Below, one piece after another: positions 2,906 to 43,398 of a stretch of DNA of 64,000 bases. The stretch's first letter is position 1; each line of letters begins with the position of its first letter. Origin of the DNA: Gemmatimonadales bacterium (GTDB lineage: Bacteria; Gemmatimonadota; Gemmatimonadetes; Gemmatimonadales; GWC2-71-9); assembly GCA_035526925.1 (NCBI GenBank), contig DATLBL010000100.1:37570-101569 (forward strand), written 5' to 3'. The notes below the pieces were generated by a model. It saw only the letters and a program-made list of their open reading frames with translations. It was not told the origin of the DNA and did no database searches. Both the position numbers and the translations under genes were made by a program.

Positions 2906-5055
2906 GCCGTCGGCGGGTCGTCACCGGACGCCTCGCCGCGGATCGCTGGAGCGTAGTGTTCCTGCACGTAGTCCTGGACCATGCGTCGCGCCGTGAACTT
3001 GGTGCCGGCGAGCCGGAGCGCGTGACGCATCTTCTCGACCCATCCCAGCGGCACCCCGGCGGCGTTGCGCGTGTAGTACAACGGAATGACCTGCTCCTCG
3101 AGCAGCCGGTAGAAGCGATCCGCGTCGGCCGCGTCGGCGTCTTCGCTTTCACCCGCCGGTGAGATGGCCCAGCCGCTCAGCCCATCGTAGCCCTCCTGCC
3201 ACCAGCCGTCGAGCGTGCTGAGCTGCGGAATCCCGTTGAGCGCCGCCTTCATCCCGCTGGTGCCGCTCGCCTCCAGCGGCACGCGCGGAAGGTTGAGCCA
3301 CAGGTCCACGCCCTGGACCAGGAGGTGCGCCAGGTGCATGTCGTAGTCTTCCAGGAACGCCACCCGACCCTCGAACTCGGGGTCGCGGGTGAACTGGTAG
3401 ACGCTCTGGAGCACTTCCTTGCCGGGGTTGTCCGCCGGGTGCGCCTTGCCGGCGAAGATGATCTGCACCGGGCGCCACGGGTCCACGAGCAGCCGCCGCA
3501 GGCGATCGAGATCGCGGAAGATCAGGTTGGCGCGCTTGTACGTGGCGAAGCGCCGCGCAAAGCCGATCGTGAGCGCGGTCGGGTCCAGCAGCGTGCCGGC
3601 GCCGACGACCTGGGCCGCCTCCTTCATCTGCTTCGCGAAACGCCGCCGGGCCTCTTCGCGGACGAAGTTGGCGAGAATCTGCTTGAGGCGGAGATGGGTT
3701 TCCCAGAAGCGCTGATGGTCCAGCGTCAGCACACGATCCCACATCTCGGGGTCGTCGAGGCGGCTGCCCCAGTCAGCGCCGAGATGCTCGTCGAGCAGTC
3801 CCATGACGGGACTCGCCATCCAGGTGGCCAGGTGGATGCCGTTGGTCACATGCCCGATCGGTACCGCTTCCCAGTGACGCCCCGGCCAGAGATCGCGCCA
3901 GATGTTTCGTGACACCTGACCGTGGCGCCGCGACACGCCGTTCACCCCGGCGGAGAGCCGCATGGCGGTGACCGTCATGTGAAATTGCCCCGGCAGGTCG
4001 GGATGCTCGCCGAGCCGGAAGAACGTGTCGCGGTCGATGCCCATCTCGTTCCACACCGGCCCGGCGACGCTTTCGAGCTGCTCGAAGGAGAACGCGTCGT
4101 GCCCCGCGGGCACCGGCGTGTGCGTGGTGAAGATGCTGCGGGCCCGTACCTCATGCACCGCATCCTCGAGCGAGCGCCCGCCGACGAGAGACTCCCGCAG
4201 CCGCTCGATCATCATGAACGCGGCGTGCCCTTCGTTCGCGTGCCACACGCCGGGCTCGATGCCCATCGCGCGCAGCACGCGAACGCCGCCCACGCCCAGA
4301 ATCCACTCCTGCCGGAGCCGCATGTCGGGCCCGCCGGCGTACAGCTTGTTCATGAGGGCGCGGTCGTCGGGGTGGTTCACCTCGAGGTTGGTGTCGAGCA
4401 GATAGAGCGGCACCCGGCCGACGGTGATCCGCCAGGCGCGGACGTGCACCGGCCGCCCCGAGGTCTCGATGATCGTGAGGAACGGCTCCTGCTTGGCTCC
4501 CGTGACCGACACCAGCGGGGTGAGGCTGACGTCGAACTCTTCGTCGCTGTCCTGCTGCCAGCCTTCGAGGTTGAGGCGCTGGTCGAAATAGCCCTTCATG
4601 TAGAAGAGGCCGACGCCGACCATCGGCACGCCCAGATCGCTGGACGCCTTGCAGTGGTCGCCCGCCAGCACGCCCAGGCCGCCCGAATAGATCGGCACCG
4701 AGTTGTGCAGACCGAATTCGGCACAGAAATAGGCGACCGGCCGGCCGTCGATCTCGGGATACCGGTGCGCGAACCAGGTGTCCGTGCTGGTGGTACCGAC
4801 GGCCATCAGCGCCATCACCTCGTCGTAGCGACGGAGAAAGTCGCTGTCGCTGGCGCAGGCGGCGACGCGCGCCGGGTCGACCCGGCAGAGCAGCTCGAGC
4901 GGATTGTGGCGCGTGAGGTGCCAGAGCGCTTCGTCGATCGACCGGAACAGGCCCCGCGCTTCGCGGCTCCAGCTCCACCAGAGATTCATGGCCAGGGCGC
5001 TGAGGCCCTCGATGCGCGCGGGAAGGTAGGGAATCCGACTATGCGGGCTGGTCAT
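2902..5055 (-). CDS. glgP: alpha-glucan (glycogen/maltodextrin) phosphorylase family protein
   Basis: Carries SGTSGMKAALNG (PLP-lysine region) and NLWWSWS near the N-terminus. I place the start at ATG 5055..5053 (MTSPHSRIPYLPARIEGL...) rather than the track start at 5151, because the extra 32 codons lie in a repeat-rich non-coding-looking stretch. Confidence 0.88.
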   Translation of the reverse strand: MTSPHSRIPYLPARIEGLSALAMNLWWSWSREARGLFRSIDEALWHLTRHNPLELLCRVDPARVAACASDSDFLRRYDEVMALMAVGTTSTDTWFAHRYPEIDGRPVAYFCAEFGLHNSVPIYSGGLGVLAGDHCKASSDLGVPMVGVGLFYMKGYFDQRLNLEGWQQDSDEEFDVSLTPLVSVTGAKQEPFLTIIETSGRPVHVRAWRITVGRVPLYLLDTNLEVNHPDDRALMNKLYAGGPDMRLRQEWILGVGGVRVLRAMGIEPGVWHANEGHAAFMMIERLRESLVGGRSLEDAVHEVRARSIFTTHTPVPAGHDAFSFEQLESVAGPVWNEMGIDRDTFFRLGEHPDLPGQFHMTVTAMRLSAGVNGVSRRHGQVSRNIWRDLWPGRHWEAVPIGHVTNGIHLATWMASPVMGLLDEHLGADWGSRLDDPEMWDRVLTLDHQRFWETHLRLKQILANFVREEARRRFAKQMKEAAQVVGAGTLLDPTALTIGFARRFATYKRANLIFRDLDRLRRLLVDPWRPVQIIFAGKAHPADNPGKEVLQSVYQFTRDPEFEGRVAFLEDYDMHLAHLLVQGVDLWLNLPRVPLEASGTSGMKAALNGIPQLSTLDGWWQEGYDGLSGWAISPAGESEDADAADADRFYRLLEEQVIPLYYTRNAAGVPLGWVEKMRHALRLAGTKFTARRMVQDYVQEHYAPAIRGEASGDDPPTA

Positions 5056-5092
5056 CGCCGTAGTATAGCGGAGGGCTCGCGGAGGTGCAGGC

Positions 5093-5146
5093 GGTGAGCG
5101 GTAACAGGTAAGCGGTAACCGGTAAGCGTGAGCGGTAAGCGTGAGC
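5093..5146. repeat. degenerate heptanucleotide tandem repeat (GGTGAGC/GGTAACA/GGTAAGC/GGTAACC/GGTAAGC/GTGAGC/GGTAAGC/GTGAGC)
   Basis: Read directly at 5093..5146. About eight head-to-tail units lie between the ettA stop and the glgP start. Confidence 0.8.
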
Positions 5147-5289
5147 AACACCCAGCCGGCCGTGGCCGGGGGCCCGCGGCGGTGTGAGGGTGATGTCGGA
5201 TCGAGATCGCTGCATCAACGGGGGGCGCTGCGGCCAGCGCGAGGTGGATCGTTGGGCACCCAACACCGCTCACTGCTCACCGCCCACCC

Positions 5290-6966
<1,677 letters not shown>

Positions 6967-39102: not shown

Positions 39103-39315
39103 TTACTTCACCTTGGTGACGTTTTCAGCGGCAGGCCCCTTCGCACCCTGCACGATGTCGAATTCCACCCGGTCACCCTCGGCGAGGCTGCGGAAGCCCT
39201 CGGCCTTGATGGCGGTGTGGTGGACAAAGCAATCCTTGTCCCCGTTCTCTGGAGTGATGAAACCAAAGCCCTTCGCGTCGTTGAACCACTTCACCGTGCC
39301 TAGGGTGCGAGCCAT
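39103..39315 (-). CDS. cspA: cold-shock protein (CspA family)
   Basis: 70 aa: [31 protein letters not shown] (RNP1/RNP2 motifs). Confidence 0.95.
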
Positions 39316-39372
39316 TGCTCCTACTCCGTGTTTATTTGACTGCGTCGGCGCCCGGGCGTGCCGCTCGCCGAG

Positions 39373-39409
39373 TTTTTATGAGCGCAGGCCCATCCTGCGT
39401 CATAAAAAG
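39373..39409 (-). promoter_or_regulatory. long hairpin in the csp 5' leader
   Basis: The minus-strand RNA UUUUUAUGACGCAGG-auggg-CCUGCGCUCAUAAAAA forms a 15-bp stem with one bulged G. It is preceded by a GGCUGAC-UUCG-GUCGGCC tetraloop hairpin. Confidence 0.55.
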
Positions 39410-39494
39410 CGTGTGGCCGACCGAAGTCAGCCGTAACCGTTCGAATGTGAGATTGATGTTGGTCAGGCGCGGTAAATGTGCAGCCGGGCTGCGT

Positions 39495-41249
39495 TTAGTC
39501 AAGAGGGGATCCGCGGAGCCACCGGGCGGCCGCCCGGGCCCAGTCGGCCACCGGCTCGCGACCCTCGGTGTCCGCCGCTCGATTGAGCGCCTGCAGGAAC
39601 TCCGCCGCCGAAGGGAACCGGCTCTCCACGTCGGCGCTCAGCGCGCGATTCAACACCCGCTCGAGCGCCTCGCTGACGTCCTCGCGGCGGTCGGCGGCCG
39701 TCGGAAGCTGATTGGTGGTCTGCCTCGCGAGCACCTGTTCGGTGGTAGCCCCAGGGAAGGGCGGGGTGCCGAGCAGCGCGTAGTAGACGACGGCCGCGAG
39801 GCTGTAGAGATCGGAGCGCTGGTCCACCCGTTCGCCCAACAACTGTTCGGGGCTCGCGAACTGCGGCGTGCCGCTCTGGCTGGTCGCGCCGCCGTACTTG
39901 CCCCGCAAGGCCAGCGCGAGGCCGAAGTCCGTGATCTGCACGCTCCCGGTGGGATCGATCAGGATGTTCTCCGGCTTGATGTCCCGGTGGACGAGCCCGG
40001 AGCCATGCGCGTGCGCGAGCGCCGAGAGCGCCTCGCGCAGCAGTCGGAGCACCTGGTCGAGCGTCAACGGACCATCCCGCTCCACCAGCTGCGCCAGGCT
40101 GGGGCCGTCGATCAGCTCCATGGTGTACCAGATGAGGCCGAACCGCCCCGCGATATCGTAGATGTTCACGATGTTCGGATGGCTCAGCCGGGCGGCGAGC
40201 TGCGCCTCTCGCCGAAACCGTTCCACCACCTCGGGATCTTCGGTCAGCGCCGGGTGCAGCACCTTGAGCGCCACGAGGCGCTCGAGATGAAGGTCTCGCA
40301 CCCGGTACACACGGCCGAATCCGCCTGTGCCGAGCAGGACGAGCAGCTCGTAATCGTCGCCGAGCGCGCGGCGGAGCCACTTCTCCCATCGCGTCCGGTC
40401 TTCGGTCCCCGTCAGTGGGCCGTGCACCACGCCCGCGGCGCGGGTCTCGAACGTCCCGGCATCGGTCGCGAAATCCTCGAGCATCTCCGCCGCCGTGAGA
40501 TACCGGGATTCGGGCGCCGGCGTGAGCGCCCGGAGCACGATGCGCTCGATCGCGCGTGGACACGTCGGTCGCAGCTCGGTCGGCCGTCGTAGATCCCGCG
40601 GATCGAGCGGCGGCGCCTGGCCGGTCACCGCGTAGTAGATCAGCGCCCCGGCGGTATAGACGTCGCACGCCGGGTCGCCCACCGCGCCGTCCCGGATCTC
40701 CGGTGCCATGAACATCGTCATGTCGGGTGTGGCGCCGGTCGGCACCGCCGGAAGCGTGTAGCTGCTGTAGCGCAGGTCGGTGATGGTGCCGCGTCCGCTC
40801 GACCCGACGAGTACCGACGCCGGCACGATCCGCCGGACGACGACGCCCTGCAGGTGGGCATGCTCGAGCGCCCCCAGCAGGTCACGCGCCAGCGCCAGGA
40901 CCGCGGGGATGATCCGCGGGCCGCGCTCGATCGCGTCCGCCAGTCCTTCGCCCTCGATCCAGTTGCCGATCCGGAAGGCCAGGTCACCCACCACGCCGAC
41001 GTCGTACACGTGCCGGATGGCCGGATGGTCGAGTTGGCCCAGCGCCTCGGCCTCGCGCAGAAACCAGGCGCGGGTGGCGTCGTCCCCGTAGAAGTTGATC
41101 CGGACGCTGACCCGGCGCTTGAGCGTCTCGTCGTGCGCCTCGAACAGCACGCGATCCGCGTTCGAGGCGGCGATCCGCTCCAGCCGGTAGCGGCCGCCGA
41201 GCGCCGCGCGGGTCCGTTCGAAGGCCTCGACCGGATCGGGACCGCTCAC
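39495..41249 (-). CDS. soluble tandem pseudokinase / Ser-Thr protein kinase
   Basis: The C-terminal domain is canonical (GTGGFGRVY, VALKVL, HRDIKPENIL, DFG, SPE). The N-terminal domain is kinase-like but lacks the catalytic motifs. I set the start at GTG 41249, which overlaps the CGNR gene stop (GTGA); the track start at 41474 lies inside the upstream gene. Confidence 0.85.
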   Translation of the reverse strand: MSGPDPVEAFERTRAALGGRYRLERIAASNADRVLFEAHDETLKRRVSVRINFYGDDATRAWFLREAEALGQLDHPAIRHVYDVGVVGDLAFRIGNWIEGEGLADAIERGPRIIPAVLALARDLLGALEHAHLQGVVVRRIVPASVLVGSSGRGTITDLRYSSYTLPAVPTGATPDMTMFMAPEIRDGAVGDPACDVYTAGALIYYAVTGQAPPLDPRDLRRPTELRPTCPRAIERIVLRALTPAPESRYLTAAEMLEDFATDAGTFETRAAGVVHGPLTGTEDRTRWEKWLRRALGDDYELLVLLGTGGFGRVYRVRDLHLERLVALKVLHPALTEDPEVVERFRREAQLAARLSHPNIVNIYDIAGRFGLIWYTMELIDGPSLAQLVERDGPLTLDQVLRLLREALSALAHAHGSGLVHRDIKPENILIDPTGSVQITDFGLALALRGKYGGATSQSGTPQFASPEQLLGERVDQRSDLYSLAAVVYYALLGTPPFPGATTEQVLARQTTNQLPTAADRREDVSEALERVLNRALSADVESRFPSAAEFLQALNRAADTEGREPVADWARAAARWLRGSPLD

Positions 41250-41791
41250 CGGCGGTTGCCCCGACGCCGCTCCACGACGGCGGTGCCGCCGCAGAGCGTC
41301 GGGTCGCACCAGCGACGACTGCCTGTGGGAGACGGATCGGCGATGAACAGCGAGCAGCTCTCGCCGGCGCAGCGTCGCACGGCGGTGCGGGTCTCGGCGA
41401 GGGTGGCCGCCGCGGACCGGGCGATGGCTTCCAAGGCGCCGGGCGGCCGGGTCGGGGCGAAGCGAAGGCGCCACTCGCCCCCCACCCGGGTGAGCTGGTG
41501 GGTGCCGGCACTCCTGGCCAGCAGCTCGTTCAGTGAGGCGATGGCCCCGGCAGGCGTGCGACCGCCGTCGTGCATCGCCTGCGCGAGCTCGGTGAGCCGG
41601 TCACGGAACTCGACGATGAGTGCGAAGCTCGCCCCCTCGGCGGGGGGCTCGAGGTGCTGGAGCTCGCACCAGCGCGCGAAGGCGGTCGAATCGGGGAGGA
41701 GATCGGGCGAGAACGCGGTGCGCCCGCGGGCGCTGTTGATGAAGTCCAGCCACAGTGCGTCGCCGAGCAGCGTGAACCCGTCGTTGGCCAT
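41246..41791 (-). CDS. ABATE-domain / CGNR-type zinc-finger protein
   Basis: From ATG 41791 it reads MANDGFTLLGDALWLDFINS. The C-terminus is C..C.LFIADPSPTGSRRWCDPTLCGG, a zf-CGNR pattern with CGGT in place of CGNR. Confidence 0.72.
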   Translation of the reverse strand: MANDGFTLLGDALWLDFINSARGRTAFSPDLLPDSTAFARWCELQHLEPPAEGASFALIVEFRDRLTELAQAMHDGGRTPAGAIASLNELLARSAGTHQLTRVGGEWRLRFAPTRPPGALEAIARSAAATLAETRTAVRRCAGESCSLFIADPSPTGSRRWCDPTLCGGTAVVERRRGNRR

Positions 41792-41798
41792 GTCGGGA

Positions 41799-43133
41799 CT
41801 AGTCGTCCGCGACCTCGACGGTGTTGCGGCCGCCACGCTTGGCCTTGTAGAGAGCGGTATCGGCCGCGGCCAGCAGGCTGCTGACCGTCGTCCCATGTTT
41901 CGGGGATTCCGCCACCCCCATGCTGAGAGTGCAGGCGCCGAACTCGGGGCTCTGCTGCTCCATCTCGCGGAGGCTTCCCTGCACGCGGCCCACGAACACC
42001 TGCGCTTCGCTGGGCTTGGTCATCGGCAGGATGACCAGGAACTCGTCGCCGCCGAGCCGCCCCACCACGTCGAGCGCCCGGCACTGCTGCCGGAGGATCT
42101 TGGCCACCTGGATCAGCAGCCGGTCGCCGGCGGCGTGGCCCATGGTGTCGTTGATCATCTTGAAGCGATCGAGGTCGATCAGCAGAACGCTGGTGTGGAG
42201 CTGATGGCGCAGGCTGCGCGAGATCTCGGCGGCCAGCCGTTCCTCGAGCGCGCGCCGGTTGTACAACCCGGTGAGCTCGTCGGTCGTGGCCGCGCTGTGG
42301 AGCTGCTCGACCAGCTCGGAGTTCTTGAGGGCGATGGCCGCCGCGAAGGACAGCGTGCCTGCCAGCTCCAGCTCGGCCCGCCCGTACAGCTTGTCGCTGA
42401 TGCGCGAGCCGAGCACCAGGACCGCCATCCGCTCCGCGCCGGCATCCAGCGGCACCACCAGTTCGGCGCCCGGCCCGATCAGTGCCGCCACCGCGACGTC
42501 GTCGGCGCCGGTCGCGGCGCTCCCCGGCGGCAGCGCCCGGTCGAGCGCGCCCCGGTCGATCGGCGCGGGCCGCAACCGGTCGTTGAGCGAGCGGAACACC
42601 TTGGGGGCGTAGCTCTCACCCTCCGGACGGTACAGGCACGCCCACCAGGCGAAGAAGACCTCGGCCATGAAGTCGAGGATGAGCTGCTCGGTATCCTCGA
42701 TGGAATGCACGGATGAAAGCAGCCGGGCCACCTGCCGGAGTGCCCGAAGCTGAAAGACCGCGTCGTCGAGGGCCCCTTGCCGCTCCAGCAGAATACTGCG
42801 GAGCTCCAGCACCACGCTCAGGCCGAGCGCCAGCGGCATCGCCACGGCCCGCATCTCACCGGCCACCGACGGATCGGCGTGGATCACCACCTCGGTCTCT
42901 CCGCTCCCCAGCCGGGCGACTTCCTGGGCAGCCTCGAAGCCCTTGGCCGGTCCAACCCGGGGCATGCTCTCGGTCGGGGAGTCGAGCGTCAGCCAGATGA
43001 GCTCGCTCTGGAAGCGCCGCACGAGCGCCACCCGGCAACGCTCGAACAGCTCACCCTCGGTACGGGAGAGGCGGCAGGCGGCTGCAAAGGCACTCGGGAG
43101 TGTGGCTAAAGCGGCAGAAGGCAGGGAAGCCAT
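41799..43133 (-). CDS. diguanylate cyclase (GGDEF) with an N-terminal GAF-like sensory region
   Basis: DELTGLYNRRALE...IDLDRFKMINDTMGHAAGD...RALDVVGRLGGDEFLVIL...ALYKAKRGGRN. I chose the start at ATG 43133 (MASLPSAALA). Confidence 0.88.
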   Translation of the reverse strand: MASLPSAALATLPSAFAAACRLSRTEGELFERCRVALVRRFQSELIWLTLDSPTESMPRVGPAKGFEAAQEVARLGSGETEVVIHADPSVAGEMRAVAMPLALGLSVVLELRSILLERQGALDDAVFQLRALRQVARLLSSVHSIEDTEQLILDFMAEVFFAWWACLYRPEGESYAPKVFRSLNDRLRPAPIDRGALDRALPPGSAATGADDVAVAALIGPGAELVVPLDAGAERMAVLVLGSRISDKLYGRAELELAGTLSFAAAIALKNSELVEQLHSAATTDELTGLYNRRALEERLAAEISRSLRHQLHTSVLLIDLDRFKMINDTMGHAAGDRLLIQVAKILRQQCRALDVVGRLGGDEFLVILPMTKPSEAQVFVGRVQGSLREMEQQSPEFGACTLSMGVAESPKHGTTVSSLLAAADTALYKAKRGGRNTVEVADD

Positions 43134-43398
43134 GTTCAAGTATACCCGTAGGCGCCGAAGGTCGGGAGCGGCACCGGACCCACCCGGCAGGCTCACGCCC
43201 GTCCAGCGGCCTGCCGATACCCGGGAGCATGAAAGTTGATCGCCTGTAACGTTGTGTAACAACGACTTGCGTGAGGCCCGGGGACGGGCTACACTTCTCG
43301 CAGACAATTAGAGCATAGCCCTTCGGGGCCCCAGGGATTTCGGCTTTGCGACCTGGGTGACCAAAATCGCTAAGGCTACCGGTCCCGGCGAGCCATGC

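Follow-up and report, generated by a model that had tools for sequence, protein, structure and literature searches.

Does a bacterium carry, on a single polypeptide, a kinase fold that has lost its catalytic residues and a kinase that still works? This question is raised by a gene on the minus strand of a 64,000-nucleotide (nt) stretch of Gemmatimonadales DNA (GenBank assembly GCA_035526925.1, contig DATLBL010000100.1, positions 37,570 to 101,569; GC content ~70%), to which we refer throughout as the window. An earlier note, made from the sequence alone, had described the gene product as JAK-like, with an N-terminal pseudokinase fused to an active Hanks-type kinase. Our analysis provides good support for an order-wide, previously unclassified family of bacterial pseudokinases fused to their own active kinase. 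The fusion of a degenerate N-terminal kinase fold to a canonical Hanks-type kinase was borne out by Pfam, an alignment to PknA, AlphaFold2 (AF2) modeling, 70 orthologues, and an independent assembly. The pseudokinase-kinase (psiK-K) gene and the parts of its product, numbered in amino acids (aa), are as follows.

39495 to 41249, minus strand: complete psiK-K gene, 584 aa plus the stop codon (39495 to 39497).
40464 to 41201, minus strand: N-terminal pseudokinase domain (aa 17-262), with both lobes of the kinase fold complete apart from a shortened alphaG region.
40365 to 40463, minus strand: inter-domain linker (aa 263-295).
39558 to 40364, minus strand: C-terminal canonical Hanks-type Ser/Thr kinase (aa 296-564).
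39498 to 39557, minus strand: C-terminal tail (aa 565-584), predicted to be helical and poorly conserved.

The maximal open reading frame (ORF) extends to 41474 and would encode 659 aa. Counted from the GTG at 41249, the gene overlaps the upstream one, which ends in TGA, by 4 nt (cgccgGTGAgcggt), and the resulting 584 aa is the length found in most of the >120 orthologue clusters obtained with the full-length query.

The two halves of the protein were scanned separately with the Pfam Pkinase profile (PF00069; gathering cutoff, 31.7 bits), and the two kinase matches predicted by the earlier note were both recovered above the cutoff. The N-terminal half (aa 1-300) alone scored 40.8 bits (E 2.2e-10), and the C-terminal half scored 173 bits, matching positions 5-259 of the 263 in the profile. 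In addition, the N-terminal half aligned with Mycobacterium tuberculosis PknA along the entire length of the kinase domain (query 12-254 to chain 5-266, E 1.4e-21), a match that is far beyond chance, and it also aligned with PknB among the PDB sequences. AF2 run on a 65-sequence alignment revealed two confidently folded bilobal domains, with block values of the predicted local distance difference test (pLDDT) mostly at 85-97, a mean pLDDT of 83.4, and a predicted template modeling score (pTM) of 0.58. The N-domain itself displayed kinase-like secondary structure at a pLDDT of ~86-97. A Foldseek search of the PDB returned PknB, PknA, and Stk1 (TMt 0.8-0.88, TMq ~0.4), all as single-domain matches, and no two-domain structural analogue was found there.

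Residues 264-282 of the linker are disordered in the model (pLDDT 33-43), variable in sequence, and subject to indels. This variable part precedes an essentially invariant helix before beta1, W288-E-x-R-L-R-R-A-L-G-D-D-Y300, through which the chain enters the C-domain. Aligned with each other, the two domains share 32% identity (E 3e-28), and the alignment begins in the helix preceding beta1 in both of them (RAALGGRYRLERI versus RRALGDDYELLVL). This level of identity, together with the common pre-beta1 helix, suggests that the tandem arose either by duplication of a whole kinase unit or by fusion of two paralogues. As the earlier note had also stated, the protein displays neither a transmembrane segment (the maximum Kyte-Doolittle value for a 19-residue window is 1.29) nor a sensor domain, with Pfam detecting only Pkinase-type domains.

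A tandem of this kind could be produced artificially if an assembly or frameshift error had joined two adjacent kinase genes, and the short proteins that appear as "stand-alone" N-domains on long contigs among the database entries might be taken to point that way. Several observations make the chance of such an error negligible. Ninety-six percent of the sampled words of positions 39300-41900 are present in the source run, a soil metagenome, and in independent Logan contigs from this run, one gapless unitig covers 40281-41828, a span that takes in the start of the gene, the N-domain, and the junction. Relative to that assembly, no indels were reported across 39300-41900. The whole protein is encoded as one ORF without internal stops in 70 species-representative Gemmatimonadota genomes, and more than 120 clusters have a length of ~584 aa. 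Neither a frameshift nor a stop codon therefore separates the N-terminal region into a gene of its own, an outcome that the earlier note had named as one that would overturn its proposal.

We also considered free-standing pseudokinase genes (296-400 aa, on long contigs), and rejected them as fragments; the one inspected is frameshifted along with its neighbors. The short entries stem from indel-prone long-read assemblies in which neighboring genes are fragmented too. Indeed, in the MFD long-read metagenome-assembled genomes (MAGs; L001/L071, L012, L051, and L065), the kinase gene and its neighbors, e.g., Peptidase_M3, are split by apparent frameshifts, which give rise to spurious "stand-alone pseudokinase" database entries. 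The broken cases in our tblastn survey were likewise either contig ends or similar long-read assemblies. Two peculiarities of the Logan contigs deserve mention: word depth rises to ~3200x over 39909-39995, the region coding for HRDIKPEN and DFG, and one contig joins 39994 to 41039. Both most likely reflect k-mers common to many kinase genes in the metagenome rather than a real deletion.

What, then, has the N-domain lost? Residues were mapped onto a PknB sequence; its numbering reproduced R10, L33, D76, K40, D138, and D156, and the mapping was consistent with the database alignment of PknA and PknB. All of the motif strings quoted in the earlier note are present in the translation, and the mapping agrees that the N-terminal catalytic motifs have been replaced at the following places.

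41148 to 41171, minus strand: degenerate Gly-rich loop AASNADRV (aa 27-34), which reads ATGGMGQV in PknA/PknB; it has no glycines and carries a conserved pair of an acidic residue at 32 and Arg33.
41097 to 41111, minus strand: beta3 strand VSVRI (aa 47-51), in which VAVK has become VSVR and the VAIK Lys is Arg50.
40815 to 40838, minus strand: degenerate catalytic loop VRRIVPAS (aa 138-145) in place of HRDVKPGN, with His replaced by Val, Asp by Arg140, Lys by Val, and Asn by Ser145.
40770 to 40778, minus strand: DLR in place of DFG (aa 158-160), with the metal-binding Asp158 kept and Gly replaced by Arg160.

The N-domain thus retains the alphaC Glu66, the DFG Asp158, and the APE motif. A pseudokinase is by the usual standard a kinase fold that has lost any of the VAIK Lys, the HRD Asp, or the DFG Asp (PMC12599244), and since both the VAIK Lys and the HRD Asp are gone, the N-domain is a pseudokinase by this definition. 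From these replacements, we infer that it would be unable to transfer phosphate.

The C-domain presents the opposite picture, and here the earlier note's statement that every catalytic motif is in place proved accurate. We found GTGGFGRV, VALK (K329), E348, HRDIKPEN (D423 and N428), DFG (D441), and SPE, each of them >95% conserved. Judged by its residues, the C-terminal domain is predicted to be a working Ser/Thr kinase. The HRDIKPEN catalytic loop is of the Ser/Thr type, and the PK_Tyr_Ser-Thr profile scores below Pkinase. Ser457 and Ser459 of the activation loop are invariant and occupy the positions of T171 and T173 in PknB; the C-domain is probably switched on by their phosphorylation.

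The residues that replaced the catalytic motifs of the N-domain are themselves nearly invariant. Among 240 family sequences, counted where the position could be compared, we found R33 in 208 of 210 and R50 in 197 of 212 (and in 71 of the 71 orthologues). In the catalytic loop, the counts were 234/234 for R139, 229/234 for R140, and 235/235 for P143, and in the DLR motif they were 233/236 for D158, 218/236 for the Leu, and 231/236 for R160; APE is invariant. Read together, pocket residues 32, 33, 50, 66, 139, 140, 158, and 160 spell ERRERRDR in 55 of the 71 full-length orthologues, with the others differing at one or two positions. The former ATP pocket appears to be filled by a conserved salt-bridge network comprising E/D32, R33, R50, E66, R139, R140, D158, and R160. 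Computed against the window sequence, the C-domain had a median dN/dS of 0.20 and the N-domain one of 0.33, both below the values for the linker (0.47) and the tail (0.53). Given the near-invariant replacement residues and the dN/dS of 0.33, the dead domain is held by purifying selection and is not decaying. Its alphaC block is among its best-conserved parts (0.87), and S163 and T165 in its activation segment are moderately conserved. We further observed that ~11 residues have been deleted from alphaG relative to the C-domain and PknB, at aa ~210-232 (window positions ~40554-40622). The alphaG helix is the usual substrate-docking helix.

A strongly conserved altered pocket that keeps the DFG Asp and the alphaC Glu might also be expected if the N-domain retained a noncanonical enzymatic activity, such as SelO-like AMPylation, SidJ-like glutamylation, or WNK-like catalysis with a relocated residue, and "pseudokinases" that turned out to be enzymes are a precedent (references as cited in PMC13519141). 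This idea is extremely improbable, since the catalytic-base Asp and the metal-binding Asn have been replaced, the Gly loop is missing, and the closest relatives are the ordinary kinases PknA and PknB rather than the SelO or SidJ families.

How far does the comparison with JAK reach? In JAK and in GCN2, a pseudokinase regulates the kinase attached to it, and the JH2 pseudokinase of JAK keeps the beta3 Lys and binds ATP. A TYK2 reference, as cited in PMC12599244, is given for the regulation of a kinase by its pseudokinase. The psiK-K protein has the order of JAK JH2-JH1 and GCN2, a dead fold followed by an active kinase on one polypeptide, and to this extent the likeness drawn in the earlier note is justified, the pseudokinase (aa 17-262) lying directly N-terminal to the kinase (aa 296-564). 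The analogy is one of domain order only, because both domains are closest to PknA/PknB, the catalytic loop is of the Ser/Thr type, and there is no FERM-SH2 module, the protein starting just 16 aa before the first kinase fold. No JH1-type tyrosine kinase domain was found in the protein, whose catalytic domain has the Ser/Thr-type HRDIKPEN and matches PknA/PknB best. There is no homology to JAK or GCN2 beyond the eukaryotic protein kinase (ePK) fold, the RWD and HisRS-like domains of GCN2 are missing as well, and, in contrast to JH2, the N-domain has Arg in place of the beta3 Lys and no Gly loop. By domain order, GCN2 is an analogue as good as JAK. The family shows that bacteria came upon the pseudokinase-then-kinase arrangement independently of JAK and GCN2, and selection has maintained it throughout an order whose members are abundant in soil.

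Both domains find their best sequence and fold matches in PknB, PknA, and Staphylococcus aureus Stk1, and the C-domain has the activation-loop phospho-acceptor positions in common with them. Unlike PknB and PknA, the psiK-K protein has neither a transmembrane helix nor PASTA repeats, carries an extra dead domain in front, and has Asp at the position of PknB Arg10. It does not qualify as a PASTA kinase (NF033483, PknB_PASTA_kin), since it scored 393 bits against a cutoff of 450 and matched only profile positions 3-272 of 563. Plant tandem kinases such as WTK1/Yr15, Sr62, and Pm24 are likewise cytoplasmic proteins that combine an active kinase with a pseudokinase and have no receptor domain (PMC6170490, PMC8761531). 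They differ in that the kinase usually comes first, the domains belong to plant kinase families, and the proteins act as sensors of pathogen effectors, whereas the psiK-K gene occupies a conserved housekeeping locus.

The customary description of a bacterial Hanks kinase is a kinase domain joined to a transmembrane sensor (Atlas preprint). The 2025 Atlas of bacterial Ser/Thr kinases (STKs) and the accompanying review recognize 35 canonical families and seven pseudokinase families (ActPs1-3, GLW, CP1, DYD, and DLHK), none of which is attached to an active kinase; the commonest architecture is a kinase with a C-terminal transmembrane segment, and neither tandem kinases nor Gemmatimonadota are mentioned (PMC12599244). 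MviN (Rv3910), of the ActPs3 family, is a Hanks-derived pseudokinase fused to a functional module; it forms back-to-back dimers and is non-catalytic (PMC12599244). ActPs3 is actinobacterial, with all three catalytic motifs degraded, a deletion in the activation loop, and a transmembrane region, whereas the N-domain has lost neither the DFG Asp nor the alphaC Glu, has a complete activation segment, and is joined to a kinase. The beta3 Lys-to-Arg change is common to the N-domain, ActPs2, and DYD, and an Arg-rich pocket is common to the N-domain and DLHK. These families are distinguished by other traits: ActPs2 has HRD Asp changed to Asn, a deleted DFG, large insertions, and a transmembrane segment; DYD lacks the alphaC Glu and is membrane-associated; and DLHK keeps the HRD Asp and occurs in helicase/DNA2 fusions. 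None of these three stands in tandem with an active kinase, and none comes from Gemmatimonadota. In addition, the shortened alphaG recalls the G-helix loss reported for ActPs1 pseudokinases. The combination of VSVR, VRRIVPAS, and DLR with a retained alphaC Glu and DFG Asp, the lack of a transmembrane segment, the tandem with a kinase, and the occurrence in Gemmatimonadota therefore fits none of the seven families as they are defined in the published descriptions (rather than by their authors' profiles), which makes the N-domain a candidate for an eighth. The single parts of the psiK-K protein are ordinary Hanks domains; it is their arrangement that is under-described in bacteria.

What might a dead kinase fold contribute to a live one? 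With no transmembrane helix or sensor domain, the protein lacks the usual dimerization and activation route of bacterial receptor STKs. We tentatively favor, as a reading somewhat short of probable, that the pseudokinase serves as a non-catalytic dimerization or allosteric module for the attached kinase by means of a PknB-type N-lobe interface. The product would be one soluble cytoplasmic signaling protein of soil Gemmatimonadales, made from two bacterial Hanks-kinase units. Through its N-lobe/alphaC face, the pseudokinase would dimerize the protein and/or associate with the N-lobe of the kinase fused to it (N:N or N:C), N-lobe pairing being the "back-to-back" interface that activates PknB-type kinases. 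In this way, the pseudokinase would provide in cis the dimerization or allosteric input for which typical bacterial STKs depend on a transmembrane sensor, and the C-domain would act as the catalytic module and trans-autophosphorylate Ser457/Ser459. The ABATE/zf-CGNR regulator and the GAF-GGDEF cyclase encoded next to it, described below, would be candidate partners or substrates.

This reading draws on the conservation of the interface positions. Back-to-back dimers are documented both for bacterial kinases and for the MviN pseudokinase (PMC12599244). The N-domain equivalents of the PknB interface residues R10, L33, and D76 are R20 (63 of 71 orthologues), L43 (68/71), and D/E83 (63/71), and R20 and D83 have been lost together in all eight of the sequences lacking either residue. 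The C-domain keeps Leu322 and D/E365 and has Asp299 at the R10 position in 71 of 71, a charge reversal that makes the N- and C-domains non-equivalent at this face.

Several observations weigh against such a module. The joint loss of R20 and D83 represents a single clade-level event, all eight sequences belonging to one clade, and the R/L/D residues at the interface positions may be ancestral features of this kinase lineage. Since D299 of the C-domain and D83 of the N-domain are like-charged, the residues fit only one half of a simple PknB-like N:C heterodimer. The AF2 model, with its pTM of only 0.58 and a disordered linker, does not demonstrate an inter-domain interface, and the effect of the module on the kinase could be either activation or inhibition. 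Furthermore, the GGDEF/ABATE neighborhood is missing from the divergent subgroup (2 of 12 loci) and cannot define the function of the family, and no RNA runs containing the gene were found.

The same architecture could instead serve JAK-type autoinhibition in cis, in which the pseudokinase would keep the attached kinase inactive by gripping its N-lobe or hinge until a signal, such as linker phosphorylation or partner binding, releases it. The psiK-to-K order on one chain with a flexible linker of ~30 aa and the invariant helix W288-Y300 at the junction are consistent with a clamp of this type, and a C-domain that is otherwise complete would need some restraint in a protein without a sensor. 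We nonetheless regard autoinhibition as unlikely: the model offers no interface at its pTM of 0.58, Foldseek returned no two-domain match to JAK structures and homology to JAK does not go beyond the generic kinase fold, and the beta3 Lys that JH2 uses for ATP binding is gone from the N-domain.

The genes nearest to the kinase gene are listed below.

41246 to 41791, minus strand: ABATE plus zf-CGNR gene, a putative stress-induced regulator (Pfam ABATE, 62.8 bits; zf-CGNR, 39.4 bits), immediately upstream, its stop overlapping the kinase start.
41799 to 43307, minus strand: GAF-GGDEF diguanylate cyclase gene (Pfam GGDEF, 162 bits; GAF_3), the first of a packed three-gene cluster.
39103 to 39315, minus strand: cold-shock-domain protein gene (Csp; Pfam CSD, 106 bits), ~180 nt downstream and syntenic.
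Upstream of the kinase gene, same strand: 5'-nucleotidase gene.
Downstream of the kinase gene, opposite strand: IF-1 and M3 oligoendopeptidase (PepM3) genes.

Metabolic genes are also among the neighbors. As listed, the ABATE/zf-CGNR ORF starts at 41896 and shares ~98 nt with the end of the GGDEF gene; the probable start is the ATG at 41791, 7 nt past the GGDEF stop, which places the beginning of the ABATE domain near residue 12. The cluster is thus packed with a 7-nt gap and a 4-nt overlap. In the GAF-GGDEF protein, the GGDEF motif is intact and an RxxD inhibitory site lies at the canonical distance from it (RALD-x5-GGDEF); the protein is probably an active, product-inhibited diguanylate cyclase.

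Synteny was counted over orthologous loci with enough flanking sequence. A GGDEF gene lies upstream on the same strand in 43 of 57 loci: 17 of 17 at ≥70% identity, 24 of 28 at 63-70%, and 2 of 12 below 63%. ABATE is upstream in 34 of 57, and on the downstream side Csp is found in 43, IF-1 in 47, and PepM3 in 47 of 58 loci. In the window's clade, the kinase gene is very probably co-transcribed with the GAF-GGDEF and ABATE/zf-CGNR genes, while the cold-shock gene probably has its own transcription start. A scan of the cluster detected no minus-strand sigma-70 promoter or intrinsic terminator signals, although such a scan is uninformative for this phylum. In a divergent subgroup (57-59% identity to the window; L073, L074, L077, and L078), a YdjM membrane protein is encoded upstream and an ABC-2 permease downstream of the kinase. 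The link to cyclic di-GMP (c-di-GMP) and ABATE is a property of the window's clade and not of the family, and we rejected the proposal that the partner genes are conserved family-wide, GGDEF and ABATE being clade-specific.

These neighbors bear on an MviN-like role, in which the dead domain would be phosphorylated by the attached kinase and recruit substrates or adaptors, e.g., FHA proteins, the ABATE/zf-CGNR regulator, or the GGDEF cyclase, without regulating catalysis. MviN sets the precedent (PMC12599244), S163 and T165 of the N-domain activation segment are candidate phospho-sites with moderate conservation, and the neighboring genes are tightly packed in the window's clade. In one locus of the divergent subgroup (L073), moreover, a gene at 4628-6574, 1.4 kb upstream of the kinase, codes for a protein that combines two FHA domains with a trypsin-like protease. 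We consider a scaffold of this kind quite unlikely, as the alphaG docking region is shortened, the candidate phospho-sites are not invariant, the neighbors vary between subgroups, and no FHA or PP2C gene (nor any defense gene) was found within ~15 kb of the kinase gene in the window.

In another reading, the former ATP pocket, lined with arginines, would still accommodate a nucleotide in the absence of metal, be it ATP/ADP or a second messenger (for instance, c-di-GMP from the adjacent cyclase), and would relay its occupancy to the kinase. Five conserved arginines (R33, R50, R139, R140, and R160) together with the alphaC Glu and the DFG Asp would suit such a sensor, as would the GAF-GGDEF gene upstream in 43 of 57 loci, and Arg-mediated nucleotide binding has precedents in DLHK/ULK4 and ActPs2 (PMC12599244). 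Yet the acidic E/D32 in the Gly loop brings the acids to three in total, which could merely neutralize the arginines, all of the Gly-loop glycines are gone, and the divergent subgroup has an unchanged pocket without the GGDEF linkage; we judge a ligand sensor to be very unlikely. A more specific version, in which the dead pocket is a receptor for a nucleotide second messenger, is very unlikely indeed; the most attractive candidate ligand would be c-di-GMP, the product of the GAF-GGDEF cyclase whose gene lies two genes upstream within the packed cluster. If true, Ser/Thr phosphorylation would respond directly to c-di-GMP levels through this protein. To our knowledge, no link of that kind has been described for any Hanks-type kinase.

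One further candidate role is that of an anti-phage defense kinase with an integrated decoy, as in plant tandem kinases, or of a member of the MADS, BREX, or PD-T4-6 systems. The PADLOC profiles PD-T4-6 and mad6 and the NCBIfam profiles MAD6 and PglW do match the protein, and some MAD6 and PglW matches span both domains. This role is highly improbable, however, because the NCBIfam scores are far below the curated cutoffs (MAD6, 250 versus 460; PglW, 130 versus 990), what the PADLOC profiles match is the generic kinase domain (best over aa 294-569), and the neighborhood is a housekeeping one, with no methyltransferase, BREX, or other defense genes nearby. Moreover, the gene keeps one conserved chromosomal position across an order, unlike patchy defense islands. 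Membership in MADS (MAD6), BREX (PglW), or PD-T4-6 was accordingly rejected on score cutoffs and gene context. As a side observation, the best stretches of MAD6 (query 61-405) and PglW (query 118-445) cover both domains, at scores far below the cutoffs, which hints that the MAD6/PglW defense kinases may also have tandem kinase-like regions.

To gain insight into the distribution of the family, we scanned GTDB species genomes with a pattern derived from the N-domain alignment and found at least 515 stretches encoding a relative, of which the best 80 were the loci analyzed here. With one exception, all 80 belong to Gemmatimonadales/Gemmatimonadota MAGs. The exception, labeled as an uncultured Acidimicrobiia (L067, CAXMUQ010000196.1), displays the full GGDEF-ABATE-kinase-IF-1-PepM3 synteny at 63% identity and is probably a mis-binned contig. 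The fusion is thus conserved across the order Gemmatimonadales. An exhaustive search of 1.84 billion representatives placed the family proper in few 50%-identity clusters (P0001, P0241, P0250, and P0251, plus fragments). Collectively, the family is lineage-specific yet abundant in soils, and its 584-aa soluble two-domain product would offer a small, tractable system for the control of a live kinase by a dead one.

The same search bears on how unusual the arrangement is. We scored the domains of the top 150 representatives for the Lys/Asp/Asp triad with a hidden Markov model built from C-domain matches (K, canonical; p, degenerate). Nearly all of these proteins have two to six kinase folds, a ranking that is expected because the query itself has two domains. 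Their layouts include 89 KK, 14 Kpp, 6 Kp, 5 KpK, 5 pK, 3 pKKK, and 2 ppppKK, among others. Ten multi-kinase representatives were looked up, and both of those with an organism name are bacterial (Deltaproteobacteria and Thermoanaerobaculia). Like the psiK-K protein, proteins of the KK, Kp, Kpp, pKKK, and ppppKK types carry several Hanks-type domains per chain, some of them degenerate, but they belong to different families (≤42% identity), and in most of them both domains are canonical or the active domain comes first. Among the top representatives, the signature VSVR/xRRIVP/DLR (ANR|R|E|VRRVS|DLR) is confined to the psiK-K family.

The earlier note had considered pseudokinase-kinase tandems to be rarely described in bacteria. 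This holds for the literature that we searched, in which no bacterial tandem of Hanks pseudokinase and kinase was found and only plant tandem kinases and JAK appeared. It does not hold for sequence space, given the multiple kinase folds in nearly all of the top 150 representatives; tandem kinase-fold proteins are common in metagenomic sequences, and the class is under-described rather than rare. That such proteins are frequent, reaching six domains and with many of the copies degenerate, suggests that a layer of bacterial signaling architecture is still largely uncharted.

Two further types stood out among these representatives. One is an active-dead-dead triple that recurs in the 14 Kpp clusters (~850-1150 aa). 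The other comprises giant bacterial proteins with three to six Hanks folds, namely, P0242 (2573 aa), P0245 (2592 aa), P0253 (2510 aa), and P0246/P0248 (~1550 aa), the layouts of which include pKKK and ppppKK, i.e., four degenerate folds followed by two canonical ones.

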